Source: a virus. From it: DNA of 42,096 bases. The DNA is taken from IMG/VR virus record IMGVR_UViG_3300045988_168302, positions 1 through 42,096 of that record; one strand, 5' to 3'. Made by a program: the position numbers and the translations under genes. Positions 12,501-37,302 of the stretch are shown here, piece after piece. Under the pieces are notes generated by a model. It was not told the origin of the DNA. It saw nothing but the letters and a program-made list of their open reading frames with translations, and did no database searches. The stretch's first letter is position 1. Every line of letters begins with the position of its first letter.

Positions 12501-15500
12501 TAAAGCTGCTGATGAATCCACTTTTGTACATGAAATGGCACATATGTTTTTAATGGATTTAGATGAGCTTGCTAAGATTGATGAATTATCTAAAAAAGAA
12601 TTGGATATAGTAAATGATTGGGCAAGTTGGAAAAATGAAAAATCTATTGATGAATATAAAAATGCCCCATGGTACAAAGAATTTAAAGCACGTCATGAAA
12701 GTATAATAAATGCTCAAAATGCTGGTGATGTAGCCAAAGTGGAAGAATTAAAAGAAGCATGGCGACAAGAACGATTTGCCAGGGCATTTGAATTATATTT
12801 ACAAAAAGGAACTGCACCAAGTAAAGGCTTAAAAGATGTGTTCCGTAAGTTAAAAAAATTCTTGCGTGATATCTATATTGGATTTACTTCTATTGGCGGA
12901 ATAGCAAGCCCAAAAGTAGAAGCCATAATGCAACGTATGGTGGCTACAGAAGAAGAAATAAACCAAATGGCATTAGATGATAGATATAGAGATATCACTA
13001 AGGCAGGCGGTGAAAAGCTACTTGATGAAACGGAAGAACAAACTTATAAACGTTGGCACAAGGAAGCTACAGAAGAAGCCAAAGAGCATCTAATGAAGAT
13101 AGTAATGCAAGATTTAAAAGCTGAAGCCAAAGTAAAATTTGATGAACGTGTAGAAAAAGAGCGAGCTTATAAACTGAATGAATTAGAAAATCAACCTGTA
13201 TATATAGCACAAGAAGCTTATAAAGAAGCAGGAGATATAAATATAGTTCTTAATTGGTTTGGTAGCGTAGAAGAATATAAACAGGCTCTAAAAAATACTA
13301 AGCCTATACAGACTGCACTTGATGAATACATGAAGCAGTATGAAAAAACTTTAGATACTGAACTAATGGAAAGCCATTTATCCGAAGAAAATATCTTGCA
13401 GGCTATGGAAGATAGTAAGTATACAAGTAAACTTGTGGCAATGGAAACTAGGATATTTAATGAAAAAGTAAAATTGATAAATAAAATAGGTTCTAAAACG
13501 CAAGTTGCTATGCAAGATGTAGAAGATAAATTAAATGCCCTTGATGATTACACAGATTTAAAAGTAGATAAAGAAGATGCTAGAGTAAAAAGCGTGATGA
13601 ATGCTTTAAATAAGCTTAGATTTAGCACTAAATGGAATGCCAAAGATTTAGGAAGAATTGAAGCAATGTTTAATAGCAATACAAAAGAAACTTTAGCTGA
13701 AGCTTTTAAACAATTTGTAGAAGAAACAAAACAGCAAAAGATAAATCGTGAAGCCATAGAAAAAGCCCATGAAGGTAAATTGAAAATGTTCAAGGAAATG
13801 GCAGAGCGTGCTTTGGACGGCAAAACCATTTTTGAAGCTTGTAATGTGGCTCTTTATCGTAAGAATGAAAGTATGCATGCACGCAGAGTAAAACAGGCTG
13901 TAAAGGCTAGTAACTGGGAGCGTGCCATGAAAGAAAAAGAAGCACAGTATATTTCTGCTGCTATGGCTCAAAAGGCATTGAAAAATAAATTGTATATACA
14001 AAAGAAAATAGAGAAGGTGAATAAACAGCTAAAAGTACGATCCATAAAATTACCAGCACAAGAACGATACTGGCATAAACATTTAGCCTATATCTTAGGT
14101 ATTACAAATAAAGATGCTAATCCACCTGTAGACGGAATAACACCACTTGCAGATTTATTCAAGGGATTACAAGATAGCTTAGATTTAGAATATACCCCAA
14201 CAGATATATTGGAGATAACAAGCCGTAGTGATTTCAGTGGTTATCAATCTATGACTATAGCCCAATTCGAGGACGCAGTGGAAGCACTAGATATCTTATA
14301 TACAACAGGTAGAGATAAATTCAAGTTAAAAACTATACAGGGGAAATCTATAGATGATGCTATAAATGAAATAATACTTGATGATACTGCTTATAACAGG
14401 TCAATGGTAATAAATAAAAAGATAAATCCAGATAAAGGTGGTCTTGGCTATAACGATTTAGTGGATAAGATACCACTTATTGGGGACGCTATGGCTCGTG
14501 GCGGTGCAAAATATTTAAGTTCCATGATGAAACCAGAAGAAATAATAAATATTTTGGGAACAAAAGCTCATAAATATTTATATGAAACATATGAGCGAGC
14601 ATCTAATCTTGAAGCTGAAATGATGACCAAAAACGTATACAAAATAAAAGAAATCTTAAAAGATTATAGCCATAGTGAAAAATTATCATGGAAGAAACAA
14701 CAATATAAATTAGAATTTGAAGATGGTACAGTAGAAAATCTATCAAAAGAAAATATTATCTGTATGGCTCTAAACTTAGGTAATGATATAAATAGAAGCC
14801 GTCTTGCTGTAGGATTTGGCTTGACAGAAGAATATCTCAAAGAATTTGTAGAAAAGCATATGACCAAAAAGGATTGGCAAATGGTACAAGATATATGGAA
14901 TCATTTACATTCTTTCTGGAAAGATACAGTAAGGGTAGAGCAAGAATTAAATGGCGTAACACTAAAACCGCAACAGCCAACACCATTTGATGTGAAGTTA
15001 CCTAATGGCGAGATATTGCATTTAGAAGGTGGCTATTATCCTATAGTAGCTAATCCACTAAAGAGCAATAGAGCCAATGAACAAGAGGTAAATGAAGCGG
15101 TAAGACGTACCATGAGCGGTGCACAAGTATTAGGCACTGGCAGAGGATTTACAAAGGCACGTTCACAGGCAAACATTGATAGAGCATTGCTTTTAGAATT
15201 TAGTGTAATACCTGACCATTTATCAAATGTAATCCACAATATAACGCATAGAATACCAGCAAGAGATGTTTATAGATTAGTAAAAAATAAACAATTTGAA
15301 GAATATGTAAATAGAACTATGGGTAAAGAAATATATCAGGTATTAGATGAATGGGCAGTGGATAATTGGCGAGTGATACCAGAAGCTAGTAATAATAAAA
15401 CAGTGCAAAAAGTATCTAAAATGCTTAGCTATTTAAGAACAAATTCTACACTAGCAATAATGGGATATAGACTTTATCCAATAATTGAAAACATGACAAA

Positions 15501-17043
15501 CATTGCACCAATGATGGATAAATTAGGTGCTATGAAATCTTTAGTAGCAATAGCAGATTACTATACAAATATAAGTAAATATCAAGAAGTGTTGCATAAA
15601 TCAATCTTTATGAAGAATAGGCTAAATCACATGGACAGGGATATAAAATACATTCCTGGATTGTTTGATGAAGATAGATTGGTAACAGGATTTTTAAAAG
15701 AACATGCATACACACTTATGACCTACAGTGATTTAATGTTTTCTGCTCCGTTATGGTGTAGAAGCTATAAAGATGCCTACGCTAAAAAACTTGATGAGGT
15801 AAAAAAAGAAAATGAAGCTAATGTAGAAAAATTGCAAAATGCACAAGCTAAAGTATCTACAATCAGAGCTAGAATAATGGACCTGCAACAAAATGCATTG
15901 AAATCAAATTTTGTTGTGCAAGGTACAAATATAAATCAAGTGGGGGATTTTCAGACTTTTGTAAATACAAGAGAAGAATTAAACCAATTACAAAAAGATT
16001 TATATATGGCGGAAGTAGAGCTAGATAATGCTAGTGAGCTTAGATTCTTAACCGATAAAGAAATCTTGGCTAAAGCTGAAAGTCGATCCATTGCTGAAGC
16101 TGATAAATCTATCCGTGAAGTATTCGGAAGTGGGCAGACAAAAGATTTAGCATCTATTCAAAAAGGTGGAGAGTTGCTGAAATTATTTACACCTTTTTAC
16201 ACTTTCTTTAATACGCAGGCTAATGCTATCTTGCAAGCTTACTATAAAGGAAAATTCATGAAGTCGACTACAATGGGTGAAAATATTACAAGGTGGCTAC
16301 CTGTGGCAAGGTCTTTTCTATATCGTATTGTGCTTACTTCTGCATTATCTACTATGCTACGTATGGCACTGCTCGGTGATGGAAGTGATGATAAGCATAA
16401 ATATGAAAAGGTGAAAAATGCAGAAGGTACAGAAGAAAAAATAGAGATACCTGTAATGCAAAGATTTTTGACACAGTTTGGCAAAAATACCTTATCCACC
16501 ATGGCTGGCACTATGTGGGGTGTACGAGATATAGCAAGCTTTTTTATCAATGAAAGTTTTGAAGGTACAGATTATGGTAGAGGTATTGGCTTTTCTACTG
16601 TGGCACTTGCTGGCGGTGAAAAAATAACTGCACTATATAAACTGCTAGATAAAAAAGCAGAAAAAGATTTAGAGATAGCAGATAAGGAAGCTAAATGGCA
16701 AGCTGAATATATGAAGGCAGGGGCAAAGAAAAGAAAAACCATGCTTGAAGATAAACAGTATCAAAAGCCACCAAAACGCATAACTTATGCAGATATAGCA
16801 AAAGCTTCAGGGGAAATTGGTACAACGTTCTTTGCAGCTAGGACAGGTATAACAAGTACCATGGCAAATAGTGTCTTCACCACTATGCAATATATAGCTG
16901 ATGGTGATGGTCGATATGATACGAACCTTAAAAATATTATTTGGTCTGCACTCTTTAATAAAAAGCCAGTAGAAAGAGTGATACCAGAAAAACCGAAACA
17001 ACCAAAGAAAAAGGGGAAATCTAAGAACGTAAGGAGATACTAA
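9565..17043 (+). CDS. Giant internal virion or ejection protein of 2492 aa, at the gp15/gp16 position.
   Basis: A single uninterrupted ORF with a good RBS. It has a Gly/Ala-rich hydrophobic zipper (AGGVAGSMP..GGGLVGAVGGGIANT) and extensive coiled coil. There is an HEMAH motif at 12529..12543 and a basic C-terminal tail. Confidence 0.7.
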   Translation: MALDVNKFNDLVNQKVAEKQQPPEEEKSIFEQIGEVVTNQSDINRQVAQESTEIAQDALQTAGQGIDLVVNTASDINNAYHNFLDEQRNITGAYTTANINQANETGDYSFQNQAVENLQQAGQELIYSPLKQVSRAIVNRYSDDNESILQDVAQGIQESNAYVNYMMTDEEKLQKAIEIENETGIKAKEFLSDTTAYREAIEIYNYAKKKKELGGDMNDVFNEFPELKNIASMDAQSAALALHDINSVRETQGVIDSFNKMWEYGNKHLEYSNLNYKLMTGQATEEDKARIDELKKQLEQAPNLPAFLDNPFAVIAGGVAGSMPMMIQSMGEMIDDFAIGASAGMVAGALAGSALPGAGTVGGGLVGAVGGGIANTIRANAIRQGAMQGARLTGGYLARYGMFAGMAKPATGGYYAEFKDLKGEDGKPLLSDEAAKDYAVVAGALNAGIEMLDFGLIKDAFTGNVAKQTVKEIIATAQKQALAKEGIKSFFTNRASAIAKVSMAESGEEGLQSISDDLVHNQILQDTGDTTNRVYTATEIAQRALMSAGEALPGAIGFGVISAGVGGFNESLGFSRNLKRLMSNNAKLEQSTRQTFAGTLMLERLQSAVRNSKLKKTAPKVQERLLRSQLDNTGFEMAYVDIPTALESQTGKQDLQTLAKTAGYTQEDLKTAIEIGGTLAIPTAKFAQAETTSDIMRAVTFNQEADPIGKLRKNAETITNEMQDSIQKTADKQRILIDAIMQEQFANGTKEQQTMAQAVIYNNVSNPAKGWKQVHDDQINERNNILVPAIDAIKKSIEQNDTWYQEFYAKHNRAMIDKEIEDMAYKLTVGHETAPSIPTWQATTPEAVQALAENKNILDDIDNNLKVLDEIKPQLSNLNGVEMRLAEGLTKDGYAVYNRLSKQLQNAGGKVKRASRMSAILFARHADIVADIMRRHGNENYTAMTYYNERFALNIKDEVNKNKGDITLLSNGQRVINLYKAADESTFVHEMAHMFLMDLDELAKIDELSKKELDIVNDWASWKNEKSIDEYKNAPWYKEFKARHESIINAQNAGDVAKVEELKEAWRQERFARAFELYLQKGTAPSKGLKDVFRKLKKFLRDIYIGFTSIGGIASPKVEAIMQRMVATEEEINQMALDDRYRDITKAGGEKLLDETEEQTYKRWHKEATEEAKEHLMKIVMQDLKAEAKVKFDERVEKERAYKLNELENQPVYIAQEAYKEAGDINIVLNWFGSVEEYKQALKNTKPIQTALDEYMKQYEKTLDTELMESHLSEENILQAMEDSKYTSKLVAMETRIFNEKVKLINKIGSKTQVAMQDVEDKLNALDDYTDLKVDKEDARVKSVMNALNKLRFSTKWNAKDLGRIEAMFNSNTKETLAEAFKQFVEETKQQKINREAIEKAHEGKLKMFKEMAERALDGKTIFEACNVALYRKNESMHARRVKQAVKASNWERAMKEKEAQYISAAMAQKALKNKLYIQKKIEKVNKQLKVRSIKLPAQERYWHKHLAYILGITNKDANPPVDGITPLADLFKGLQDSLDLEYTPTDILEITSRSDFSGYQSMTIAQFEDAVEALDILYTTGRDKFKLKTIQGKSIDDAINEIILDDTAYNRSMVINKKINPDKGGLGYNDLVDKIPLIGDAMARGGAKYLSSMMKPEEIINILGTKAHKYLYETYERASNLEAEMMTKNVYKIKEILKDYSHSEKLSWKKQQYKLEFEDGTVENLSKENIICMALNLGNDINRSRLAVGFGLTEEYLKEFVEKHMTKKDWQMVQDIWNHLHSFWKDTVRVEQELNGVTLKPQQPTPFDVKLPNGEILHLEGGYYPIVANPLKSNRANEQEVNEAVRRTMSGAQVLGTGRGFTKARSQANIDRALLLEFSVIPDHLSNVIHNITHRIPARDVYRLVKNKQFEEYVNRTMGKEIYQVLDEWAVDNWRVIPEASNNKTVQKVSKMLSYLRTNSTLAIMGYRLYPIIENMTNIAPMMDKLGAMKSLVAIADYYTNISKYQEVLHKSIFMKNRLNHMDRDIKYIPGLFDEDRLVTGFLKEHAYTLMTYSDLMFSAPLWCRSYKDAYAKKLDEVKKENEANVEKLQNAQAKVSTIRARIMDLQQNALKSNFVVQGTNINQVGDFQTFVNTREELNQLQKDLYMAEVELDNASELRFLTDKEILAKAESRSIAEADKSIREVFGSGQTKDLASIQKGGELLKLFTPFYTFFNTQANAILQAYYKGKFMKSTTMGENITRWLPVARSFLYRIVLTSALSTMLRMALLGDGSDDKHKYEKVKNAEGTEEKIEIPVMQRFLTQFGKNTLSTMAGTMWGVRDIASFFINESFEGTDYGRGIGFSTVALAGGEKITALYKLLDKKAEKDLEIADKEAKWQAEYMKAGAKKRKTMLEDKQYQKPPKRITYADIAKASGEIGTTFFAARTGITSTMANSVFTTMQYIADGDGRYDTNLKNIIWSALFNKKPVERVIPEKPKQPKKKGKSKNVRRY

Positions 17044-19602: not shown

Positions 19603-19706
19603 GTTTACTTTACTTTTTGCAAAAATCTATACATTTACTTGACTTTAAAAGTAAAGTAGGTGTGTAGATTTAACTAAAAAGTAAAGTTGATAATGAGGTG
19701 ATGAAA

Positions 19707-20156
19707 ATGCAGGAGCTTAGTATATTTTTAAAATCATTGATACCAGTAAGATTAGAAATAGAAGTAGGTGTTATAGTGGCTTTTTGTGGTACTGTGGTTA
19801 ATTATTTTTTAGGGCAATGGACACCACTATTAGAAACACTAATTATATTTATGTTGTTTGATTATATAACTGGAGTAATGTCTGCATGGATTAATCCATA
19901 TAAAAAGCTCGATAGCAGGAAAGGTATGAACGGATTAAAAAGAAAAGGTGTAATTTTAATAATGGTGATGGTCGGACATTTTTTTGATAATGCTATTGGA
20001 CAAAATACCATGACACGTGATATAGTAGCACTTTTCTATCTTGGCAATGAGGGATTATCTATATTAGAAAATGTAGCAAATTGTGGGGTGCCTGTGCCGA
20101 ATAATCTAAAAGATAAATTAGCACAATTCGCAGATGATAAAACTACTAGAAATTAA
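19707..20156 (+). CDS. Holin of the TcdE/UviB family (phage_holin_4_1).
   Basis: Three predicted TM segments. The C-terminus NCGVPVPNNLKDKLAQFADD matches TcdE LCGLPVPKRLKEKIAILLDA. ATG 19707 has the best spacing to gaggtg. Alternative starts lie at 19698 and 19701. Confidence 0.65.
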   Translation: MQELSIFLKSLIPVRLEIEVGVIVAFCGTVVNYFLGQWTPLLETLIIFMLFDYITGVMSAWINPYKKLDSRKGMNGLKRKGVILIMVMVGHFFDNAIGQNTMTRDIVALFYLGNEGLSILENVANCGVPVPNNLKDKLAQFADDKTTRN

Positions 20157-20170
20157 AAGGACCTTAAGAT

Positions 20171-20419
20171 ATGGATAAAAATAGAAAATTAGCTAGAACA
20201 TGGCTTATAAATAGCAGCAGAGCGGACTTTGAAGATATAATATATAAATCAAAAATAACTCCAAGGCAACAAAAGATAATCGAATTTAGAATATTGAAGA
20301 ATTTTGAGATAACAAAAATAGCAAATCTATTAAATCTATCTGAAGAAACGATCCAACGTGATATTAAAAACAGTTACAATCTAATAAGTAATGCATTAAT
20401 AAAATACAAATTAATATAA
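20171..20419 (+). CDS. Small HTH protein resembling sigma-70 region 4 (TcdR/UviA or ArpU-like late regulator).
   Basis: ITPRQQKIIEFRILKNFEITKIANLLNLSEETIQRDI has a typical region-4 HTH pattern. It is adjacent to a TcdE-like holin. Confidence 0.45.
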   Translation: MDKNRKLARTWLINSSRADFEDIIYKSKITPRQQKIIEFRILKNFEITKIANLLNLSEETIQRDIKNSYNLISNALIKYKLI

Positions 20420-21239: not shown

Positions 21240-21308
21240 CTTTTGATTAAAATTTTAAGCTGTGCACACTTAAATTTTTAAAAATAAAAAATAATGAGGT
21301 GTATCAAA

Positions 21309-21938
21309 ATGTCTGATATGACAAATAGTGGCGGTGGAGTAATTCCTGTTTATAACATGCCAAACAATGATGGAATGGGTGGAAGTATTTGGGTATTACT
21401 TCTAGTTATTCTCTTATGTGGCGGTGGTCTTTTTGGTGGTTTTGGCGGTGTGAATAGTGGCGTAAATACTATTAACAACGACTTCATTTATAGCAACTTA
21501 AGTAATTCCTTAAATACTGGATTTACACAGGTAGCTAATAACCAATTCCAGACACAAAGAGATATTATGCAAACAGGTGCAAACTTACAAATGCAGATTG
21601 CACAAAACGGCTTTAATGCTCAACAATGCTGTTGCGAAACCCAAAGAAACATTGATAATGTAAGATTTGAAAATGCTCAAAACACTTGTGCAATTACTAC
21701 AAATGCAACAAATAATACACAGAAAATTTTAGATAAACTTTGTGATATGGAAAGAGGCGCACTTCAGACAGAAAATGCAAATCTTAGAACTGCTCTCGCA
21801 CAGGCTAATGGACAGCTTAGCCAATTATCTCAAACAGCAAGTATTGTTTCTCAAATCGCACCAAGACCAATTCCTGCTGTTATCGCACAGAATCCAAATT
21901 ATTGTTATTATGGCAATAATAGTGGATATTTCAACTAA
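21309..21938 (+). CDS. Membrane protein with a Gly-zipper TM segment (YjcZ-like GGxxWVLLLVILLCGGGLFGGFGG), a Q/N-rich region and a YCYYGNNSGYFN tail.
   Basis: RBS gaggtg 8 nt before ATG 21309. One TM helix. Terminator follows at 21962..21991. Confidence 0.5.
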   Translation: MSDMTNSGGGVIPVYNMPNNDGMGGSIWVLLLVILLCGGGLFGGFGGVNSGVNTINNDFIYSNLSNSLNTGFTQVANNQFQTQRDIMQTGANLQMQIAQNGFNAQQCCCETQRNIDNVRFENAQNTCAITTNATNNTQKILDKLCDMERGALQTENANLRTALAQANGQLSQLSQTASIVSQIAPRPIPAVIAQNPNYCYYGNNSGYFN

Positions 21939-21961: not shown

Positions 21962-21991
21962 AAAAGAGCGGAGCAATTCCGCTCTTTTTTT
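21962..21991 (+). terminator. Rho-independent terminator.
   Basis: agagcgga-gcaat-tccgctct followed by ttttttt. Confidence 0.8.
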
Positions 21992-22008: not shown

Positions 22009-22440
22009 ATGACTTGTTATCGAAAATCTACATTAAACGCAATAAATACAACAGCACAGGCTTTGACTGCAAATAGTTTAGTAGCTTTCAATAGTGCTAA
22101 TGTTACAGGTCAAAGCATTGCATTCACAGCAGGAACTACTCCAGCAGTATTACAAAAAGCAGGGCTTTATTTAGTAACAGTTAATGCAAATCTTTTGGGG
22201 ACTGCTGCTGGACCTGTAACCTTACAATTATTAAACAATAACAATGCTATAGCAGGTGCTAGTGCTACAGTAACAACAGCAGACGCAACAGAATATACAG
22301 CAAGTATTATAACAGTAATTGAAGTCCCTTGCTCTTGCCCATGCACACCTACAGCAAATAACGTAAGCTTGCAATTACAAGTACAGACAACAGGTGTTAC
22401 AGTAAACAGCGTAGATTTAGTAGCAGTGAAATTAGCGTGA
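22009..22440 (+). CDS. BclA C-terminal-domain-like (TNF/C1q-like jelly-roll) protein without collagen repeats.
   Basis: The pattern FNSANVTGQSIAFTAG..LQKAGLYLVTVNANLLG..TLQLLNNNNAIAGASATVTTADATEYTASIITVIEV..VSLQLQV..VAVKL parallels the C-terminal domain of exosporium BclA. Confidence 0.5.
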   Translation: MTCYRKSTLNAINTTAQALTANSLVAFNSANVTGQSIAFTAGTTPAVLQKAGLYLVTVNANLLGTAAGPVTLQLLNNNNAIAGASATVTTADATEYTASIITVIEVPCSCPCTPTANNVSLQLQVQTTGVTVNSVDLVAVKLA

Positions 22441-22449: not shown

Positions 22450-22914
22450 ATGAAAATAAATTGTGAGAAAATCTATGAAGAACTTTTAGAAGACGATTAT
22501 AAAAAAGAAGAAGTGATCGAGCTGTCTTGCAAAATGCTACGTATGCTTAAACATTTTGATGAAGGCACTTATAATCGCATTAGTTTAAAAATGCACGTAT
22601 TGAAATACGGAAAACATTTTTGCGAAAACATGGCCAAAGAAGCTGTAGAATGTATGAAGCACTTTGATGGTTCTTATGGTGAACATTGGAGCGTAGAACA
22701 AACTACAAATTTAGCAACACAAAATAATATAAATACAAATAAATGGGATTGGTATTATCTTTTAAATATGCTGTATTCTGACGCAGGCAATGTATTTAAA
22801 AATGATATACGAACTTATGTAGATTTTGCCAAAGCTGTATATCTCAATGATGTTGATGGTGAAGAAGGAAAAATCTTTGATGAGTATATAGCAAAAAATT
22901 ATATTATTTATTAA
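22450..22914 (+). CDS. Hypothetical protein.
   Basis: RBS gaggtgg. 154 aa. Confidence 0.5.
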   Translation: MKINCEKIYEELLEDDYKKEEVIELSCKMLRMLKHFDEGTYNRISLKMHVLKYGKHFCENMAKEAVECMKHFDGSYGEHWSVEQTTNLATQNNINTNKWDWYYLLNMLYSDAGNVFKNDIRTYVDFAKAVYLNDVDGEEGKIFDEYIAKNYIIY

Positions 22915-23002
22915 AAAAACTCTTGCTTTTTTTAGTGAGATTTTGGAAATTTAATACAGTAAGGTTAAAACCGCTACTAATAACTTAATATTGGTGGCGG
23001 TT
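22913..23002 (+). promoter_or_regulatory. Copy 1 of a ~90-bp repeated element, with a 14-bp stem-loop (two U-G wobble pairs, plus strand only) and a T-run. It lies directly upstream of gene 23028.
   Basis: Near-identical to 37303..37392. The stem is aaccgctactaata-acttaa-tattggtggcggtt. Confidence 0.6.
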
Positions 23003-23027
23003 ATTTTATTTAGATAGGAGTGATACT

Positions 23028-23771
23028 ATGTTAAACAATCAACTTGTACTGAAATATGAAGCAGGTGGCAATCCTGCAACTGTAAGTACAGGAAGCGGAG
23101 ATTTAGGCGGTAAATCTTATGGAAGATATCAATTTTCAAGTACAGCTGGTGTAGTTGAAAACTTTGTTGAATGGCTGTGCAATTATCCTGAAGCTTGCTA
23201 TGCAAATTATGGTAGAGTCTTAAAAAATGCCTATCCAGTTAATTCAAGTGGATTTATAAATGAATGGAAATCTATCGGTACAATAGATGCCGAAGGTTTT
23301 GGCAAATTGCAAGACGAATATGCAGGCGATATGTACTATAATGTAGGCTATTTTAATTTATTAAATGGCGGATATGATATCACCAAACACAATGAAACCA
23401 TGAAAGCGGTATTATTCAGTCGTGCCATTCAATATGGCCCAGCAAATATGTGTGAACTTTGGACAGAAGCAGTAAGACTTATGGGACACCCAGAAATTAG
23501 CTGGGTAGATGATAAATGCTTTGATAGGGAAATGATTGAATGCATATATAATTTTCTGATCCAAGAATGTGATAATGCATATTTAACTTCTAAAGGTACT
23601 TATCATAGCCCTAAAGATTGGGCAAATGGTAGCTATGACGTAGTAAAAATAGGGCTTAGAAATCGTTTTATAAATGAAAAGGCTGATGCATTAAAACTAC
23701 TTGAAGATGAGGGTTTTGAAAAAAATAAAAATATAAAATCTAGTAAAGCCTTACCAATAAAGGATTTTTAG
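23028..23771 (+). CDS. Putative lysozyme-like peptidoglycan hydrolase (GH108-like motif), a candidate endolysin.
   Basis: KYEAGGNPATVSTGSGDLGGKSYGRYQF resembles the GH108 signature EGGYvnDpnDpGGeTkyGI. The later LFSRAIQYGPANMCELWTEAV corresponds to LFDFAVNaGvgrAakfLQ. Preceded by the repeated regulatory element. Confidence 0.35.
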   Translation: MLNNQLVLKYEAGGNPATVSTGSGDLGGKSYGRYQFSSTAGVVENFVEWLCNYPEACYANYGRVLKNAYPVNSSGFINEWKSIGTIDAEGFGKLQDEYAGDMYYNVGYFNLLNGGYDITKHNETMKAVLFSRAIQYGPANMCELWTEAVRLMGHPEISWVDDKCFDREMIECIYNFLIQECDNAYLTSKGTYHSPKDWANGSYDVVKIGLRNRFINEKADALKLLEDEGFEKNKNIKSSKALPIKDF

Positions 23772-23902
23772 ATTTTAGCTTATTTAAAATACCAGGTATT
23801 TTTATAGTTGTATGCATGTAGTATTTTGAAATTAGATTGCAGAATTTTTCCAGGATATTTTCTGCATGCAACGGTTAATTAATAAATAAAATTTCAATAT
23901 TA

Positions 23903-23945
23903 GTAGATAATTGGAAAGTAATTAGAAAGTAAATGGAAAGTAAAG
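23903..23945 (+). repeat. Iteron-like direct repeats (GTAGATAATTGGAAAGTAA, then GAAAGTAA x3 with 11-bp period).
   Basis: GAAAGTAA at 23914, 23925 and 23936. A second array lies at 24345..24427. Confidence 0.6.
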
Positions 23946-23957
23946 GAGAAAAATTAA

Positions 23958-24341
23958 ATGTATGATAATTGGAAAGAAATGTTTGAAAAATATTCGAAAG
24001 TAGATTTTGATACAAAAATACGAGATTGGGCAAGATATTATTATTATGATCCAAGTGAAGAGATAAAAGCAAACTTTATACCTGAAGATTTAACAGTTAA
24101 AGATGTTATCGTTACTCTATTAAATAAAGAAGATATCTATGAAAAAATAATGGATGATGATGATTGTTTAGTAGAAATACTACTAGAATGTATAAGAGAA
24201 CTATTAACTAATAGTACAAATGCAGTTCAAAAACTTATAGATGAAATAGAAAAAGAGGAAAAAGAAATTACTGAGGAAGTCCGCAGACAAATTGAAGAAG
24301 AAAAGAGACTAAAAAATAATCAGCAAATGACCAGCAAATAA
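23958..24341 (+). CDS. Hypothetical acidic protein.
   Basis: RBS aaaggag. 127 aa. Confidence 0.5.
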   Translation: MYDNWKEMFEKYSKVDFDTKIRDWARYYYYDPSEEIKANFIPEDLTVKDVIVTLLNKEDIYEKIMDDDDCLVEILLECIRELLTNSTNAVQKLIDEIEKEEKEITEEVRRQIEEEKRLKNNQQMTSK

Positions 24342-24344
24342 ACG

Positions 24345-24427
24345 GTAGATAATTGGAAGGTATTTGGAAAGTAAAAGTCTATAAACCGTATCATTAAAGG
24401 ATTTAATTGGATGGTAATTGGAAGGTT
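24345..24427 (+). repeat. Second iteron-like array: GTAGATAATTGGAAGGTA, then GAAAGTAA, then AATTGGATGGTAATTGGAAGG with 11-bp phasing.
   Basis: A 16-bp near-identical copy of the repeat at 23903. AATTGGA occurs at 24404 and 24415. Confidence 0.55.
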
Positions 24428-24447
24428 TTAAAAAGGAGTAATGAAAG

Positions 24448-24684
24448 ATGTTAGTAAAAATTATTAGTACAAAAAAATTACCTGAAAAAGTAGTGGCATA
24501 TATTAAAAACGTATATAAAACCAATACCCAAAATGTTAATAGTGCATTACTTGATATCAATGACAAATTTAACTTACAAGGTGATGAAAGATATTTGACC
24601 ATGGGACATAGTGAGCATGGTGATGTAATTTATTTCTGTGAACAGCGTGCAGAAAATAAAGTTATTGAAGAATTTGAAGTGTGA
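24448..24684 (+). CDS. Hypothetical protein.
   Basis: RBS aaggag. 78 aa. Confidence 0.5.
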   Translation: MLVKIISTKKLPEKVVAYIKNVYKTNTQNVNSALLDINDKFNLQGDERYLTMGHSEHGDVIYFCEQRAENKVIEEFEV

Positions 24685-25121
24685 TGATAAATGTGTTTAG
24701 TAAAATTAAAAACTTTATCCAGGAACATAAAAAAATGTGCTGTGTTTTTTTGCTTGTGCTGTGTATTTGCTTTGCCTACTGGTTACTGTTCGCAAACGTA
24801 TACGATAACACAGGAACAGCTAACGACGCTAGAAACCAACTTAATACAGCTCAAGAAGAACAACAGCGAGCTACAGAATCTATTGAACAAATCCAATCAG
24901 GAATTGATGACAGCATCGAAACAGTCGGAAGTATTGAACAGTCAAATAACGAAGCTAAAGACACAGCTGATGACATCACAGACACAAATACAAACATTAA
25001 CACAGCAATTACAAACGCTCAAGACTCAATCACAGCAGGCACAGGACTCATTGACGATAGCCAGCGAAGAATTGAACAAAGTCTCACAATCATTGAAGAT
25101 ATCCGAGCAGGAGCAAAATAA
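24684..25121 (+). CDS. Frame-1 product of the AC-rich segment: N-terminal TM anchor plus acidic coiled-coil domain, i-spanin-like architecture.
   Basis: ATG 24684 overlaps the upstream stop as TGATG. The TM segment is CCVFLLVLCICFAYWLLF. Third-position composition resembles the rest of the genome more than frame 2 does. Confidence 0.4.
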   Translation: MINVFSKIKNFIQEHKKMCCVFLLVLCICFAYWLLFANVYDNTGTANDARNQLNTAQEEQQRATESIEQIQSGIDDSIETVGSIEQSNNEAKDTADDITDTNTNINTAITNAQDSITAGTGLIDDSQRRIEQSLTIIEDIRAGAK

Positions 25122-25182
25122 ACTTAAAAAACAAAGGCTATTATGGCAAATAATAGCAGGAACATTATTGATATTTAAATAA
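24691..25182 (+). CDS. Frame-2 product of the same segment: signal-peptide-like N-terminus, heptad Leu coiled coil and a C-terminal TM anchor.
   Basis: 163 codons open in a second frame. The coiled coil has regular heptads (LTTLETNLIQLKK..LQTLKTQ). It ends with the TM segment LLWQIIAGTLLIF. Third positions are G-rich and atypical for this genome. Confidence 0.35.
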   Translation: MCLVKLKTLSRNIKKCAVFFCLCCVFALPTGYCSQTYTITQEQLTTLETNLIQLKKNNSELQNLLNKSNQELMTASKQSEVLNSQITKLKTQLMTSQTQIQTLTQQLQTLKTQSQQAQDSLTIASEELNKVSQSLKISEQEQNKLKKQRLLWQIIAGTLLIFK

Positions 25183-25256: not shown

Positions 25257-25289
25257 AAAAAAAGACTACCTTATTTGGTAGTCTTTTTT
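25257..25289. terminator. Bidirectional terminator at the 3' end of the minus-strand gene.
   Basis: aaaaaagactacc-ttattt-ggtagtctttttt. The stop codon of the minus gene lies in the loop. Confidence 0.75.
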
Positions 25290-26824
25290 ACTCTAGTACA
25301 CCCACATGATTTACTATAACCATTAATTACATAAGATTTATTGAATTCCTTTATATTGCCACAATCACATTTACAGACAACTCTATTTTTACCTAGTTCT
25401 TTTATAATGGTGAGATGATTAAATTTTTGCCCTGTTCTATCTATAATACTTTTTGTTTTCCTCAAACATCCGCATGATTTTGTATGACCGTTAATAACGT
25501 TGTTTTTTGCTGTTTCAATGATATTCCCACAATCGCAACGACAACGAACTTTTGTTGTATTATATCCTTTAGAGTCTTTTACGTAAAATTCTTCTAATAC
25601 AGTAAGGGAATTAAATTTTTTACCTATTATATTTTCTGTAATGCGTTTTATTTTTATGGTTTTATAAGGGCAGTTTTTATCACCACAATATTTTTTTTCC
25701 TCTAAAATCACATCTTGTTTTTTAGCTTCAACAATGTTGCCACAATCACAACGGCAAATAACTTTTGTCTTATAACCACCATTTTCCTTTATAATGGTGA
25801 GGTGATTAAATTTTTTACCTATATAAGATTTAATTTTAGGGCCTCTAGTTATGCATCCACAAGATTTTGTGTTGCCACTAACTATTGTTGATTTTTTTAA
25901 TATTTTTACGTTTCCACAATCACATTTACAAAGAACTTTATCGCCGCCTAGCTCTTCTAATATAGTGAGCATGTTAAATTTCTTACCTACATAAGATTTA
26001 CGAACTTGTGTTTTTTTATTAGCAAAATAGTTTCTTATAATAGGAAGGAAATATTTCTTTTCTGCTTCTTTTCGAGCTTTAATGGCTTCTTCTTTAGTAT
26101 CAAATTTCCCTAAAGAAATTAAAGTATTACTGATACCAATTTTAGCCTCCCATTTATTCAATTTAGGGCGGAAAAATACTCCGTTTATTCCGCTTTTATT
26201 ATTTTTAGCAAGCTTCCTATTGCTTATAAGCTTTATATTAGTACAACGTATACTAAATTTTTTTAAACCATTATGCATTTTATCTGTTCTGGATTTATTA
26301 GCGCATAAATTACATGAGGTGGATTTATGATGTGTTAAATTTGCTGTTAAAACTATTGTTGTATTACCACAACTACATTTGCATAACCATTTTACTGGCT
26401 TATTTTGTATTTTTTTTATAACTGTAAGATTGCCAAAAACTTTTCCTGTTAAATCAATAAAGTTCGGATTTTCTTTAGAAATACATCCACAGTCTTTTAT
26501 TGAACCATTAATCACACGGTCTTTTCTTAAAATTTTTTCATTGCCACAATCACAACGGCAAAGAATTTTGTTTTCTCCAAGTTCTTTAATAATGGTAAGA
26601 TGATTGAATTTTTCTCCTTCTTTATTATCGATTTTGTATTGTCCACTATTAATAAATTCATAACGTTTGCACCCACAGGATTTTGTTTTTCCTGTTTTAA
26701 CTTTATATTTATCGTATTCCTTAACTGTTCCACAATCACAGCGACAAATAATTCTATTATTACCTAATTCTTTTATAACTGTAAGATAGTTAAATTTCTG
26801 TCCTGTTAAATCTATAAATTTCAA
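25271..26824 (-). CDS. Protein of about eight tandem Cys-rich modules ([F]xxLTVIKELGxNKxxCxCDCGNxK...GxTKSCGC) around a central AP2/ERF-type DNA-binding domain.
   Basis: The AP2 consensus SGINGVFFRPKLNKWEAKIGI..SLGKFDTKEEAIKARKEA lies at about 26050..26210. TTG start at 26824 has a perfect SD aaggagtg 6 nt upstream. The in-frame ATG at 26878 has no SD. Confidence 0.65.
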   Translation of the reverse strand: MKFIDLTGQKFNYLTVIKELGNNRIICRCDCGTVKEYDKYKVKTGKTKSCGCKRYEFINSGQYKIDNKEGEKFNHLTIIKELGENKILCRCDCGNEKILRKDRVINGSIKDCGCISKENPNFIDLTGKVFGNLTVIKKIQNKPVKWLCKCSCGNTTIVLTANLTHHKSTSCNLCANKSRTDKMHNGLKKFSIRCTNIKLISNRKLAKNNKSGINGVFFRPKLNKWEAKIGISNTLISLGKFDTKEEAIKARKEAEKKYFLPIIRNYFANKKTQVRKSYVGKKFNMLTILEELGGDKVLCKCDCGNVKILKKSTIVSGNTKSCGCITRGPKIKSYIGKKFNHLTIIKENGGYKTKVICRCDCGNIVEAKKQDVILEEKKYCGDKNCPYKTIKIKRITENIIGKKFNSLTVLEEFYVKDSKGYNTTKVRCRCDCGNIIETAKNNVINGHTKSCGCLRKTKSIIDRTGQKFNHLTIIKELGKNRVVCKCDCGNIKEFNKSYVINGYSKSCGCTRVKKTTK

Positions 26825-26904
26825 ATTACTCACTCCTTGATAGATAATCAAAGATAAGCTATAATATTTACAGCTCATCTGATTAATAGAAACATTAGAT
26901 GTAA

Positions 26905-26941: not shown

Positions 26942-27079
26942 ATTATATCACTTTATTTACCTAAATAATACTATAAAAATAATATAAAATCAATATAATT
27001 ATAGAATATAATAATTATAAAAATGATATAAAAACACTTAAATAAAAGAAAAAGCCGATATTTTGATATCGACTTTAGT

Positions 27080-28286: not shown

Positions 28287-28673
28287 TCATGAATTTTGGA
28301 CGTCGTTCATCACGACTTGAAGAATAAAATTATTTACACTTCGGTCTTGTTTTTGAGCTTCTTCTTTTACCTTGATATATAAATCCATATCAAGATTTAA
28401 ACATATTTTACCTTGTGGTTTAAATAGTTTTTCTACATCATTAAGCTCATTGTACATATTCTTTTTTAAAGTCTGTTTGATGTATCCTGTTACTGTTCTG
28501 CCTACGCTAGTAGCTTTATCTTTTAGACGAGTTTTTATTTCTTCTGTAACATAGAGAAATACTGTTTTTTTAGTATTTCTTGTAGGTGTTGGTATTGGTT
28601 TTTCAATTTTATCTTCGATCGGTTTTTTTTCTGTGAAAAATTCCGATGCTACAGTGAATTTTTTATTTGCCAT
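28287..28673 (-). CDS. Tandem ribbon-helix-helix protein, a likely ParG/CopG-like centromere-binding partner of ParA.
   Basis: Two beta-strand plus helix-helix units (KKTVFLYVTEEIKTRLKDKATSVGRTVTGYIKQTL and KICLNLDMDLYIKVKEEAQKQDRSVNNFILQVV). It overlaps the end of parA by 11 nt. Confidence 0.5.
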   Translation of the reverse strand: MANKKFTVASEFFTEKKPIEDKIEKPIPTPTRNTKKTVFLYVTEEIKTRLKDKATSVGRTVTGYIKQTLKKNMYNELNDVEKLFKPQGKICLNLDMDLYIKVKEEAQKQDRSVNNFILQVVMNDVQNS

Positions 28674-29379
28674 AATTTATTACCTCGTTAACGAAACTTT
28701 TATAATCTCGACCAGCATTACTATATTTTGCATAGTCGAAAATATTTTGTTTTAAATTTTGAGCTTCTGGAATAGCTACACATTCTCTTATTTGAGTATC
28801 AAAAACTCTTGTTCCATAATCAACTGTTTTTGATTTTAGCTCTTCTAATATATTTTGGGCTATTATAGTTCTAGCTTTAAATCTAGTTAGAAGAACACCC
28901 ATTATTTTTACTTGCACCTTTTGTATTTTTTCTATCAAGATATTTATACCCTGTGCAGAAAAAGTATCTGCGTGGGCAGTGATGATTATATAATCACTGG
29001 CACATAAAGCATTAATTGTAGTAATGCCTAGTGCTGGAGCTGTATCAATAATGATGTAGTCATATTTATCTTTTATGGGCATGAGTAAATCGTGCAAGAT
29101 AAATTCATATCCTGCACCACCTTGAATTTTTACAATATCAGGCGAGCCAGCAATCATATCGTTTTTGATACACTGATCTACAGCTGTTTCTTCTGTGAGC
29201 ATATCGAAAATATTATACTTATTATTCATGCAATTTTCTGCATTAGATAAATTGCATTGTGAATCTAGGTCAATTAGCAAGACTTTCTTTTTATAAAATT
29301 TTCTAAGTCCTGCTGCTAGGTTTTGGGCAGTAGTAGTTTTACCAACTCCGCCTTTTTGGTTTACAATACTAATTATCAT
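28663..29379 (-). CDS. parA: ParA/Soj-family partition ATPase.
   Basis: Deviant Walker A motif IVNQKGGVGKTTTAQNLA. 238 aa. RBS ggtgg. Confidence 0.85.
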   Translation of the reverse strand: MIISIVNQKGGVGKTTTAQNLAAGLRKFYKKKVLLIDLDSQCNLSNAENCMNNKYNIFDMLTEETAVDQCIKNDMIAGSPDIVKIQGGAGYEFILHDLLMPIKDKYDYIIIDTAPALGITTINALCASDYIIITAHADTFSAQGINILIEKIQKVQVKIMGVLLTRFKARTIIAQNILEELKSKTVDYGTRVFDTQIRECVAIPEAQNLKQNIFDYAKYSNAGRDYKSFVNEVINYGK

Positions 29380-29509: not shown

Positions 29510-29863
29510 TTAAAGTTCATCAACAGCTGTAATTTTTACTTCAAAATGATTTTCTAATAATTCGTCAAATAAATCTGAACCATCAATTTCATCATTGTAA
29601 TACTTTTCTACGATTGATTTAGCTTTTGCTTCATCTTCTTTATTTACAAAAACAAATTCAATCATTATATCATATGCTTCGTCTTCTTCTTTATCATAAA
29701 ATGTGAATGATGGATTTTTATCTTCTACTAAGTTTCCACCATCTTCATAATCGAAAATAGATTTTCCACCGAGTTTTACCATTTCAGTATCAATTGCAAA
29801 TAAATCAATTGTTTCACCTAATAATTTTTTTGCTTCGTTAATAGTTTCTTGTTTGCTCATCAT
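29510..29863 (-). CDS. Acidic small protein, paralog A of a pair. Candidate DNA-mimic, anti-defence or immunity protein (speculative).
   Basis: 117 aa, very D/E-rich. The N-terminus MMSKQETINEAKKLLG is shared with 30045..30386. It has its own promoter and terminator. Confidence 0.6.
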   Translation of the reverse strand: MMSKQETINEAKKLLGETIDLFAIDTEMVKLGGKSIFDYEDGGNLVEDKNPSFTFYDKEEDEAYDIMIEFVFVNKEDEAKAKSIVEKYYNDEIDGSDLFDELLENHFEVKITAVDEL

Positions 29864-29916
29864 GATTAATTACCTCTTTTTATTATTTATTTCTTGTAGT
29901 TCCTTACTACACTTAT

Positions 29917-29945
29917 ATAATACCATATAAATAATATAATGTCAA
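29917..29945 (-). promoter_or_regulatory. Sigma70 promoter, TTGACA-17-TATTAT, for acidic gene A.
   Basis: Minus-strand reading gives ttgaca ttatattatttatatgg tattat. It is duplicated at 30439..30467. Confidence 0.65.
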
Positions 29946-30007
29946 CATAAAAATAATATAAAAATACCATAAAAATAATATAATTAAGATATAAATAGAT
30001 AAAAAAG

Positions 30008-30046
30008 AAGGCATCACCAAGGGCATTTGGCGATACCTTACTTTTT
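30008..30046 (-). terminator. Minus-strand terminator. The 12-bp stem is perfect only on the minus-strand RNA (two G-U pairs). Loop AATGCCCT.
   Basis: aaggcatcacca-agggcatt-tggcgatacctt. The plus strand has C-A mismatches. A T-run follows on the minus strand. Confidence 0.6.
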
Positions 30047-30386
30047 AAAGTTCTTCGATATTTGTAATTTCAATCGTAGTTTTACGTGCTTCTTCTTCTA
30101 ATTCCCATTCTTCTAATTCATCATTTATATATTTTTCATTACATTCTTTAGCATTGCCACTTATTATTTTATAAGTAACACCAAGATAAAAAACTTCATC
30201 TTCATTATCTACAAAAGTCCAACAAGGTTGTTCGTCATTGATGAATTCGCTTACGCTTAATTCATCAAAAATTGAACCAGCACCAAGTTTTACCATTTCA
30301 TTATCCAAGTCTGTATAACCGAATAATTGAAATTGTTTCCCAATTAAATTTTTTGCTTCGTTAATAGTTTTTTCTTTGCTCATCAT
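30045..30386 (-). CDS. Acidic small protein, paralog B.
   Basis: 113 aa. The N-terminus MMSKEKTINEAKNLIG matches paralog A. The upstream ~110 bp are near-identical to the region upstream of paralog A. Confidence 0.6.
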   Translation of the reverse strand: MMSKEKTINEAKNLIGKQFQLFGYTDLDNEMVKLGAGSIFDELSVSEFINDEQPCWTFVDNEDEVFYLGVTYKIISGNAKECNEKYINDELEEWELEEEARKTTIEITNIEEL

Positions 30387-30438
30387 GATTAATTCCTCAT
30401 TTCATTTATTTTTTTATGTAGTTCCTTACTACACTTAT

Positions 30439-30467
30439 ATAATACCATATAAATAATATAATGTCAA
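30439..30467 (-). promoter_or_regulatory. Sigma70 promoter, TTGACA-17-TATTAT, for acidic gene B.
   Basis: Duplicate of the promoter at 29917..29945. Confidence 0.65.
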
Positions 30468-30611
30468 TAGAAAAATAATATAAAAATACCATAAAAATAA
30501 TATAAATTTAAAATAAAACACAATATATAGTGGTTTTTGCAAACTCAATCAAAGTCAGTCAAAAATCTTGGAAAATCCATTTGGAGAATACATATTTTTG
30601 GCAAAATAAAA

Positions 30612-32164: not shown

Positions 32165-32179
32165 ATTGTTGACAACAAT
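32165..32179. promoter_or_regulatory. Operator 2, ATTGTTG-a-CAACAAT, overlapping the -35 of the rightward promoter.
   Basis: Perfect 15-bp palindrome. Confidence 0.65.
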
Positions 32180-32197
32180 AAAAAATATTGCTAAAAT
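32169..32197 (+). promoter_or_regulatory. Rightward early promoter, TTGACA-17-TAAAAT.
   Basis: Consensus -35, 17-nt spacer and a good -10. It points toward the small ORF at 32256 and the rep region. Confidence 0.55.
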
Positions 32198-33075: not shown

Positions 33076-33978
33076 ATGTCTTATGTTAAGAAACAGACAA
33101 GTATAAATAATGATAATATCTTGGAGATATATTACACCAAGAAATTACCTGTAAAGAATAATATAAGAAGCCCAAAAATGGGACTTACTCCTTTGGCACA
33201 AGAAGAAGTGAATAACAAGAATTCTATAAATTTGTTAAGGCTTCTTATTTTAAATAATTTTGGTGATGGGGATTTATTTCTATCTCTAACTTATAAAGAT
33301 AAGAAAGAGGAAAATAAAAAAGAACCGACACCAGAAGAAGCGAAAAAGCATTTGGCTAATTTTAGACAGAAGTTAATTCGTTTCTATAAAAAGAAAAATG
33401 CTGTAGTGAAGTATATATTTTGTACGGAATGTACTTCAAAACAGCAAAGAATACATCACCATTTGCTTTTAAAAGTTGAAGGTTGTGATGTAAATCCAAC
33501 AGATATAAAAAATCTTTGGGGACATGGTTTCGTATCTGTAAAAATCTATGGCGGACAAATAACAGATGCCGAAGACCTCGCAAATTACATGGTGAAGAAA
33601 AAGAGAAATGCTTTCTTCACTGCTCCAGGAGTATTCAAAAAAAGGTATAACGCTAGTAAAAACTTGGAAAAACCGCAAGTTACTAGCGTTATTGTGCGTA
33701 GGAAATATTGGCTAAGAGAACCAAGAATTCCGAAAGGATATATGCTGGACAAAAACAGTCTTATAAATGGTATTTATACATTTGGTAATGGAGAAAGCGA
33801 TTATGAATACCAATTTTATAGATTAATCAAGATTGATAAACCTGCAAGGCGAATAAACTTGCAGGAAAAAGTGAAAGCTAAAAGAGTTAAAAAAGAAATC
33901 TACTTTACACATAATCTAAACAAAATAGATTTCTTAATAAAATACAAAAAGCCTAGAGCCGAAAGCAATACGAGCTAA
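33076..33978 (+). CDS. rep: Rolling-circle replication initiator (HUH endonuclease Rep).
   Basis: Motif 1 FLSLTYKD at ~33274. Motif 2 IHHHLLLKV (HUH) at 33455..33463. Motif 3 LANYMVKKK with the catalytic Tyr at 33586. Confidence 0.7.
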   Translation: MSYVKKQTSINNDNILEIYYTKKLPVKNNIRSPKMGLTPLAQEEVNNKNSINLLRLLILNNFGDGDLFLSLTYKDKKEENKKEPTPEEAKKHLANFRQKLIRFYKKKNAVVKYIFCTECTSKQQRIHHHLLLKVEGCDVNPTDIKNLWGHGFVSVKIYGGQITDAEDLANYMVKKKRNAFFTAPGVFKKRYNASKNLEKPQVTSVIVRRKYWLREPRIPKGYMLDKNSLINGIYTFGNGESDYEYQFYRLIKIDKPARRINLQEKVKAKRVKKEIYFTHNLNKIDFLIKYKKPRAESNTS

Positions 33979-35498: not shown

Positions 35499-35870
35499 AT
35501 GATTGATGATAAACAAATTGGTGAAGATATTATAGAAAAAATGAAAAAGATTATTGCTAGTAATGAAACTGCAATTTTTGTTGTTTATAAAAGTGATGAG
35601 CGACGATTATTACCAACAAAATTTAGGCTTAGCAAAAGAGAGCAGGTAGAGAAAATTGAAGAAGAATATAAAGAATTTTTAAAAGCACACTTAGATTTTT
35701 CAATTTTTAATCGTTCAAAAGAGTTGAAATTTCATGCTGGTGAAGAATGTTGCGATTTGATAGTTAGCTGCTTGACTTATTTGCATACATTTTTTAGTAA
35801 AGAAGAACGAAACAAATTAATTGAGTATGTAAATGAAAAGAATATAAAACGTGGATATTTGGAGAAATGA
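35499..35870 (+). CDS. Hypothetical protein.
   Basis: 123 aa. RBS aaggag. Confidence 0.5.
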   Translation: MIDDKQIGEDIIEKMKKIIASNETAIFVVYKSDERRLLPTKFRLSKREQVEKIEEEYKEFLKAHLDFSIFNRSKELKFHAGEECCDLIVSCLTYLHTFFSKEERNKLIEYVNEKNIKRGYLEK

Positions 35871-37285: not shown

Positions 37286-37302
37286 AAAATTTAAAAAAGT
37301 GT

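Follow-up and report, generated by a model that had tools for sequence, protein, structure and literature searches.

A repeated promoter-like and terminator-like cassette before the packaging and lysin genes of a probable Veillonella phage-plasmid

Which function may be exerted by an element of about 90 bp that occurs twice in one viral genome, once before a lysin-like gene and once before the terminase gene terS? The genome is the IMG/VR virus record IMGVR_UViG_3300045988_168302, which was analyzed as one stretch of 42,096 nucleotides, here called the window. The favored answer, with a somewhat better than even chance of being correct, is that each copy would combine a late promoter that depends on an activator with a terminator in the leader, which insulates and attenuates the late genes. 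Such a cassette most likely switches the late genes on together while it blocks read-through from upstream. Starting from the repeat, the conservation of its motif at both loci, the plus-strand hairpin with its T-run, and the position of the element relative to the operons, we infer promoter activity, a start site, termination, and the identity of possible regulators.

Layout of the element in the window and in relatives

The original prediction had placed one copy of the element before the lysin-like gene and the other before terS, and both were confirmed on the plus strand at 22912-23002 (copy A) and 37302-37392 (copy B). The predicted layout of a conserved block, a spacer, and a hairpin block also stood, while the lengths of about 45, 11, and 30 nt given for them had to be corrected to 48, 9, and 33 nt. 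The 5' block is identical in both copies over 48 nt, the 9-nt spacer differs at 7 of its 9 positions, and the second block is again identical over 33 nt (22969-23001 and 37359-37391). The tails past the second block diverge, yet both are T-rich (TATTTTATTT and CTTTTTATAT). From the hairpin to the ATG, 26 nt remain in copy A and 23 nt in copy B. A repeat finder assigned the two copies to one family of 98 nt with 91% identity and detected no third copy in the genome. Each half is present exactly twice when up to 3 mismatches are allowed, compared to 0 matches in 100 shuffles. A search of the whole window against Rfam gave 0 hits at the gathering threshold, with the best relaxed matches at 24-26 bits versus thresholds of at least 59.

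The 5' block of copy A contains an A-tract (22913-22919), the TTGAC-like hexamer TTGCTT (22923-22928), the repeat GTGAG (22935-22939), and the core ATTTTGGA (22940-22947), which is followed by TTTAATACAG. In an alignment of eight copies from 5 phage lineages, the A-tract and ATTTTGGA were invariant, the flanks varied, and two TTGAC-like hexamers were positioned about 12 bp apart upstream of ATTTTGGA. No sigma-70 consensus match was present on the plus strand of either copy, and no TATAAT-like hexamer was located 16-18 bp from the TTGAC-like hexamers. The lysogeny and early region of the window contains several perfect sigma-70 promoters of the TTGACA-17-TATAAT type. Because the motif, unlike these consensus early promoters, is devoid of a sigma-70 −10 site, we infer that the promoter-like block depends on a dedicated phage factor or activator.

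The second block forms a hairpin of 14 bp with 5 G-C pairs, a 6-nt loop, and two U-G pairs (T22975-G22996 and T22978-G22993). Folding of the bare hairpin yielded −18.3 kcal/mol with a z score of −7.4, and folding of the 100-nt element as plus-strand RNA yielded −27.6 and −27.1 kcal/mol for copies A and B with z scores of −4.9 and −5.3, respectively. The reverse strand reached −14.4 and −15.6 kcal/mol with a mismatched stem. Within the two hairpin types described below as types (i) and (iii), all changes in the stem are one-sided, from U-A to U-G or from A-U to G-U and never to A-C. The folding energies of both strands and this G-U-preserving variation agree with the earlier claim that the hairpin is valid only as plus-strand RNA. 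The base of the stem is GC-rich, and 4 to 6 consecutive T residues follow within 8 nt in all eight sequence variants; this T-run is kept despite differing tail sequences and with T contributing 29% of the plus strand. A GC-containing stem-loop on the transcribed strand with a U-rich tract immediately 3' of it is thus present, as in intrinsic terminators, and judged by these features the 3' half is an intrinsic (Rho-independent-type) terminator-like element, as had been expected from a terminator or attenuator module. Pairing of the A-rich spacer with the U-rich tail can lengthen the stem to about 22 bp with an internal loop, which is not conserved in the consensus fold. The consensus fold contains a single conserved stem and no conserved alternative antiterminator fold.

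A terminator scan placed both copies among the four best-ranked terminator-like sites between 20 and 40 kb, and they are the strongest plus-strand sites of this kind following the late and the early operon. Hairpin B is the first strong plus-strand terminator 3' of the early promoter at 32169-32197. Hairpin A is the first one after the late operon of 27.5 kb, inside of which no strong plus-strand terminator was found. Both hairpins are found where a long operon ends, and the space between each hairpin and the genes that follow is too short for a separate promoter.

Relatives were gathered by means of homologues of terS, the lysin, and a giant virion protein together with their contigs, and by DNA-pattern scans; individual loci are designated by an L number. 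The motif was found before terS in L007, L031-33, L037, and L044 and before the lysin gene in L026, L049, and L051. Three architectures were distinguished. In type (i), the terminator is 3' of the promoter (P-T). This type comprises the window, near-identical IMG/VR contigs, and contig 173571, which has a terS 84% and a lysin 91% identical to those of the window and carries the element at both loci (L007 and L026). In contig 173571, one copy differs from the other and both differ from those of the window, but ACATTTTGGAA, ACAGTAA, and the hairpin with its T-run are retained. The original prediction would have been refuted by a recent duplication with no conservation elsewhere, and these mutually diverged copies, both with core motif and hairpin, argue against such an origin.

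In type (ii), the terminator precedes the promoter (T-P). It is found at terS loci with 69-89% identity (L031-33, L037, and L044) and at the lysin loci L049 and L051, and L049, which belongs to the same 41,758-nt phage type as L031, shows that T-P occurs at both loci of this phage. The order is a stop codon, a short ordinary terminator with T7-T9, about 20 A/T-rich nt, CTTGACAAAATAATTTACCATTTTGGA, the Shine-Dalgarno (SD) sequence, and the ATG. No hairpin is 3' of the motif, so that both loci carry a copy of the motif as in type (i), but with the terminator on the opposite side. The hairpin of the window belongs to the module here, as predicted, but it is not an obligatory partner of the promoter, since a relative with an 89% identical terS has no downstream hairpin and uses a different terminator upstream of the motif.

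Type (iii), with terS 57-60% identical (L030, L034-36, and L045), has a different upstream motif (ATTACGCTATA), DUF1492- and ArpU-like sigma-related genes of the Ltr superfamily directly upstream of terS (PMC3753634), and a hairpin of 10-12 bp with a T-run about 20 nt before terS; no second copy was found near the lysis genes. The leaders of the DUF1492-type relatives (L035 8660-8725, L034 9925-9985, and L030 8095-8135) contain CCUCC(G)-type sequences just 5' of the hairpin that can pair with the downstream SD-like GGAGG or GGGGCGG. The 3' arm and U-tract of L030 can alternatively pair with AAAGGGGCGGCU. These additional pairings vary between the relatives and are absent in L045.

All three genomes with two analyzed loci share one architecture at both of them, P-T in the window and contig 173571 and T-P in the 41,758-nt phage. 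Scanning of JGI metagenomes for the hairpin pattern added no lineage to the two that were known, and the type (ii) motif had no match in an IMG/VR scan. The idea of a widespread terS-associated hairpin was rejected, since a degenerate IMG/VR scan gave unrelated terminators, for instance upstream of an NrdD-like gene.

The relatives indicate where the promoter should be. In the T-P relatives, the motif is the only sequence between the upstream terminator and the ribosome-binding site and must therefore contain the promoter. The same motif is positioned before terS and lysin in diverged relatives, which bears out the 5' half of the shared late promoter that had been proposed. Because only about 11 nt part GGAA from the SD sequence in L051, transcription would probably start just after the motif, within about 12 nt past GGAA, roughly at 22949-22960 and 37339-37350, and the spacer of copy A is probably part of the initially transcribed region. 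Other positions were considered and rejected. A promoter 3' of the hairpin would have only 23-26 nt, which are occupied by the SD sequence. A start site inside the hairpin, with an ECF (extracytoplasmic function)-like −35 site at TGGAA, would deprive the sister-phage transcripts of their conserved SD sequence. A small 5' hairpin within the promoter-like block (CUCUUGCU...AGUGAGA) was also dismissed as an RNA structure, as it is not conserved in L007 or L026.

Evaluation of the identity between the two copies in the window needs to consider the spacers. That of copy A resembles the spacer of the lysin-locus copy in contig 173571 (L026, TAACAGTAAA), and that of copy B resembles the spacer of its terS-locus copy (L007, TAATGGTT). 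Because the spacers are locus-specific, with the terS copies alike across phages and the lysin copies likewise, the identical flanks in the window are read as the result of gene conversion on top of selection.

Competing explanations and candidate regulators

In the favored reading, the cassette would be present once before each late unit, terS with the virion genes and the endolysin unit. Its 5' half would act as a non-canonical, factor-dependent promoter composed of the A-tract, the two TTGAC-like repeats, and the invariant ATTTTGGA. The hairpin would be within the first 55 nt or so of the late transcripts and would also provide the 3' end of the operon upstream, so that polymerases coming from the early operon would not enter terS and those from the virion operon would not enter the lysin unit. 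Basal firing of the late promoters may be attenuated by the hairpin as well, which would hold the genes for packaging and lysis tightly shut as long as the phage is in its carrier state. In the late part of the lytic cycle, a phage regulator would activate both promoters and enough polymerases would pass the terminator, either by partial termination, that is, leakiness, or with the help of a phage factor that renders polymerase termination-resistant.

Several observations weigh against this reading. A strong terminator placed directly after the only promoter available to essential late genes would make little sense if it were neither leaky nor overridden, and family searches found no known antiterminator homologue, with no hit for the region 35499-37285 in Pfam, PHROGs, NCBIfam, or PDB sequence searches. 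At 17 bp from the TTGACA of the motif, no −10 site is recognizable. Part of the conservation within the window reflects gene conversion, given that the copies are identical. No double, compensatory change occurs within either hairpin type; a compensatory series from C-G via U-G to U-A between types (i) and (iii) was not counted, since it came from our own structure-guided register and MAFFT chose another one. Finally, the stem is longer and, at −18 kcal/mol, more stable than the plain terminators of the sister phages at −5 to −12 kcal/mol, and the T-tract is interrupted. A long stable stem with an interrupted T-tract could indicate a different or additional role, for instance in processing, stability, or protein binding.

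The alternative that survives best keeps the promoter and interprets the hairpin as a regulated terminator that is overridden by a dedicated phage antiterminator, as is done by lambda Q at PR'-tR'. Transcripts would stop after about 50 nt until a phage protein is loaded at the promoter or leader, and orf36549, the helix-turn-helix (HTH) protein 37070-37285, or the sigma-70 region-4 (r4)-like protein (Table 1) would be the candidates. The order of regulator gene or genes, promoter, terminator, and late genes matches the lambda layout, and the invariant block is part of the core promoter, as is the binding site of lambda Q. In each genome, the two loci are concordant in being P-T or T-P, although this concordance comes from three genomes only and gene conversion explains it equally well. 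The same motif works in sister phages without a downstream terminator, which means that it is not specific for antitermination, and further strong terminators, for which antitermination would have to be processive, are missing from the late operon. Homologues of Q, N, or other antiterminators were not detected. On balance, this explanation is unlikely. A particular version of it, which ranks just behind and is likewise doubtful, would be an undescribed Q-like antitermination in a Negativicutes phage-plasmid, exerted at the ATTTTGGA promoter by a protein without homology to Q or N that would take polymerase past the leader terminator, with orf36549 as the best positional candidate.

The gene orf36549 is found in both P-T lineages and only there, being absent from the T-P early regions. 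Its products form a family of 125-138 aa with four conserved Cys residues and the conserved basic stretch RYTTLxKCFxLRxKxKHYKL. No family or structure match was obtained for this orphan, and no homologue was detectable among 1.8 billion representative proteins; the single-sequence AlphaFold2 (AF2) model, with a predicted local distance difference test (pLDDT) value of 45, was unusable. Its assignment as an antiterminator candidate is speculative.

Two other proteins may be considered as regulators. The product of 20171-20419 has sigma-70 region-4 similarity with E values of 1e-4 to 1e-7, below the family cut-offs, and is kept in all examined motif-bearing relatives (L026, L049, and L051) and absent at the type (iii) locus L050. 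It had originally been proposed to control the element; the proposal found no support beyond co-occurrence, and the gene lies far inside the late operon, about 25 kb past terS. The HTH protein 37070-37285 has weak PHROG regulator hits and a HipB-like match without a match to any Ltr family. Positional homologues exist in all motif-bearing relatives and are absent from relatives with a different motif. It co-occurs with the motif as well as the sigma-r4-like protein does and occupies the classic position of a late activator. Because such co-occurrence largely mirrors phylogeny, each of the two proteins is a candidate that provides no more than a lead.

The HTH gene also contains a low-complexity stretch of 14 nt (37164-37177) that is the exact reverse complement of CTTGCTTTTTTTAG in the element (37312-37325 and 22922-22935). 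The element as a small RNA with a target was nevertheless rejected, since this 14-mer is the sole complementarity of at least 12 nt and is not conserved in contig 173571. In contig CYGL01000628 (L043, near 11600), an inverted junction links terS at about codon 14 to the 14-nt stretch of the HTH gene, which is probably an artefact of assembly or rearrangement.

A second alternative, to which a small chance may be given, interprets the hairpin mainly as an RNA processing or stability element, which protects the 5' end from decay or serves as an RNase III site, as in the early mRNAs of T7 and SP82. The unusually long and stable stem, its identical sequence at both loci, and a predicted start site just 0-20 nt upstream of the hairpin would agree with this function. 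So would the extension of the stem to about 22 bp, but these outer pairs are not kept in the consensus fold. A stabilizer or RNase III site needs no T-run, which nevertheless follows the GC-rich stem base in every variant, and in the sister phages these genes are expressed from the motif with leaders that contain no hairpin.

It is improbable that the 5' block is not a promoter but a nut-, qut-, or ops-like loading site for antitermination, with the late genes being transcribed by read-through from upstream. Both hairpins of the window are exactly at the ends of long operons, and the sequence of conserved block, variable spacer, and conserved hairpin in two copies recalls nutL and nutR of lambda. 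In the T-P relatives, however, the block is 3' of the terminator, where it would be useless for passing that terminator, and it is the only possible place for a promoter of terS or lysin. Moreover, the boxA-like CTCTT is not conserved among the aligned copies and only a single stem is, which also does not agree with lambda nut or HK022 put sites.

Very improbable, despite the near-perfect 14-bp inverted repeat, the HTH gene adjoining copy B, and the identical copies in the window, is a double-stranded DNA operator for a dimeric repressor or HTH protein, since the arm mismatches of all variants are G-T on the plus strand and never A-C and the GC-rich stem base is followed by a T-run, or a recent functionless duplication of the whole repeat, which is ruled out in its neutral form by the diverged copies at both loci of contig 173571 and by the motif at both T-P loci.

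Operons, genome, and host

The positions of the element and of the genes and sites discussed are given in Table 1. The first and last 54 nt of the window (1-54 and 42043-42096) are identical, and the window was therefore considered a circular assembly of 42,042 bp. The late operon extends from terS across the contig junction to 22914.

Table 1. Positions of both copies of the element and of associated genes and sites in the window (aa, amino acids; pI, isoelectric point)
Feature	Position	Strand	Details
Copy A promoter-like block	22912-22959	+	Identical to 37302-37349
Copy A spacer	22960-22968	+	TAAGGTTAA, locus-specific
Copy A hairpin and tail	22969-23011	+	Stem 22969-22982/22989-23002, loop 22983-22988, T-rich tail 23003-23011
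Copy B promoter-like block	37302-37349	+	Core ATTTTGGA at 37330-37337
Copy B spacer	37350-37358	+	GTAATGGGA, locus-specific
Copy B hairpin and tail	37359-37399	+	Hairpin 37360-37391, tail CTTTTTAT; flagged by terminator scan
terS	37404-37885	+	SD AGGAGG 37404-09, ATG 37415; phrog_4044, E 6.8e-28; tblastn to annotated terS; first late-operon gene
Peptidoglycan hydrolase (lysin)	23016-23771	+	SD AGGAG 23016-20, ATG 23028; VgrG3-like C-terminal, Pfam PF21277, E 3.6e-29
Sigma-70 region-4-like protein	20171-20419	+	82 aa, pI 9.9; just after holin, in late operon
Xre-type HTH protein	37070-37285	+	71 aa, pI 9.8; last early-operon gene, directly upstream of copy B
Orphan Cys-rich basic protein orf36549	36549-36965	+	138 aa; counterpart L007 2246-2623
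Early promoter	32169-32197	+	Consensus sigma-70, TTGACA-17-TAAAAT with TG; drives early operon ending at copy B
Palindromic hairpin	25258-25289	both	A-run and T-run, AAAAAAGACTACC...GGTAGTCTTTTTT symmetric; scan lists − strand

Terminase and portal protein are epsilon15-like, and a capsid protein of the epsilon15 type (Pfam GP7) was called in relatives only. The giant virion protein of 2492 aa (9565-17043, plus strand) has no Pfam match itself, and its homologues bear large polyvalent protein LPD domains. A phage-encoded RNA polymerase inside this protein was considered and rejected, because Pfam was empty and the homologues are polyvalent (LPD-domain) virion proteins. Between the genes 21294-21938 and 22009-22440 of the late operon, a small plus-strand hairpin with a T7 run (21970-21985, GGAGC..GCTCT TTTTTTG) is a possible weak internal terminator or pause site.

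The lysin gene opens a short unit (23028-25182), and lysin homologues are frequently fused to amidase domains. This unit had been regarded as the lysis operon with the lysin as its first gene, but it is not a complete one, since the holin gene (19698-20156) is 3 kb upstream of the lysin within the long late operon. The unit and the convergent gene 25271-26878 are closed by the hairpin 25258-25289, which is terminator-like in both directions. Two intergenic gaps of the lysin unit (23903-23944 and 24345-24375), upstream of small genes at 23958 and 24448, contain iteron-like 11-nt repeats (GGAAAGTAAAT and TTAGAAAGTAA).

Genes of plasmid type encode a ParA ATPase with a ParG- or ribbon-helix-helix (RHH)-like partner and a Rep protein (REP_ORF2-G2P), at 28287-29379 (minus strand) and 33076-33978 (plus strand). 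No integrase was recognizable in the window, in which an open reading frame (ORF) of 535 aa (25271-26878, minus strand) bears an AP2 domain only. Because a partition pair and Rep are present and an integrase is not recognizable, the phage is probably a circular, plasmid-like temperate phage, or phage-plasmid. Relatives encode ParA and ParB, and one of them a serine recombinase. Inside the 535-aa ORF, at 25297-26811 (minus strand), a protein module is repeated, as seen from about six internal repeats of the families D1, D3, and D4 with distances of roughly 170-200 nt. Two paralogous small genes (29510-29863 and 30045-30386) are part of a duplicated cassette of about 200 nt (29799-29995 and 30322-30517, minus strand), each with a consensus TTGACA-17-TATTAT promoter with TG, and AT-rich direct repeats recur at 26972-27022.

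One protein that is 98% identical to the giant protein bears the label Veillonella sp. As the sole clue to the host, this label suggests that the host is probably Veillonella, a Negativicute. Searches for cultured relatives among GenBank phages and PLSDB plasmids yielded nothing but distant matches to the terminase, and scans of GTDB genomes for a prophage or host with the TerL peptide and with the hairpin DNA pattern were both empty.

To our knowledge, hardly any work exists on how late genes are controlled in phages that infect Veillonella or other Negativicutes, or in phage-plasmids whose virions are epsilon15-like. The cassette supplies a testable late promoter motif, TTGAC-like repeats plus ATTTTGGA, that would coordinate packaging and lysis from two sites. 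Of main interest is the natural swap between T-P and P-T, with close relatives placing an intrinsic terminator before or after the same promoter, because it offers direct experimental access to the question whether the leader terminator just insulates or is the target of a new antiterminator. A simply leaky terminator would mean ordinary, if neat, insulation of phage operons. Motif and hairpin together help to delimit late operons in genomes of uncultured gut and oral phages and could be used as tightly-off expression parts.

Known systems of late-gene control

The module PR'-tR'-Q of lambda is similar in having an intrinsic terminator tens of nucleotides past the promoter and directly before lysis and packaging genes; the hairpin of the cassette begins about 20 nt past the motif core, and 23-26 nt are left between its end and the ATG. 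Regulator genes immediately upstream are another shared trait, and a short terminated leader RNA would be expected, as is known for a lambda-type late promoter in Stx phages (PMC7547250). Unlike in lambda, the promoter of the cassette is not consensus sigma-70, no Q homologue was found, two cassettes are present instead of one, and sister phages use the motif with no terminator 3' of it. Instead of an enterobacterium, a Negativicute (Veillonella) is the probable host.

Late promoters upstream of terS in Firmicutes phages are associated with the Ltr superfamily, which comprises RinA, ArpU, LtrA/sigma70_r4, LtrB/DUF1492, and LtrC (PMC3152322, PMC3753634). As in these systems, the gene of a small basic regulator candidate, 37070-37285, is the last one of the early cluster just before terS, a terminator is located between this gene and terS, and a non-consensus late promoter with DNA repeats would control packaging and lysis. 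The gene at the regulator position encodes, in contrast, an Xre/HipB-like HTH protein without an Ltr-family match, and the sigma-r4-like protein with its LtrA-like similarity is encoded in the late operon and not at the end of the early one. In phi11 and 80alpha, the start site is 23 nt before terS and the terminator is upstream, which corresponds to T-P (PMC3152322, PMC3753634), whereas the window has P-T, with the terminator as part of the leader. Ltr systems use a single promoter for the entire late operon; here, the promoter is duplicated before the lysin gene.

A short motif that is not of the −35/−10 type and is repeated before several late units is also found in P2 (Ogr), P1 (Lpa), Mu (C), and T4 (gp55). 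The late promoters of these four phages are read with a phage-encoded factor. The motif of the cassette is unrelated to theirs, no homologous factor was identified, and their promoters are not fused to a terminator hairpin. The hairpin itself resembles Rho-independent terminators and leader attenuators in its GC-based stem, short loop, and U-tract and in its position at the end of an operon as well as in a 5' leader, and it differs from the usual ones by a longer stem, an interrupted U-tract, and no conserved antiterminator fold. In comparison with these systems, the cassette is a familiar type of phage control in a new sequence form.

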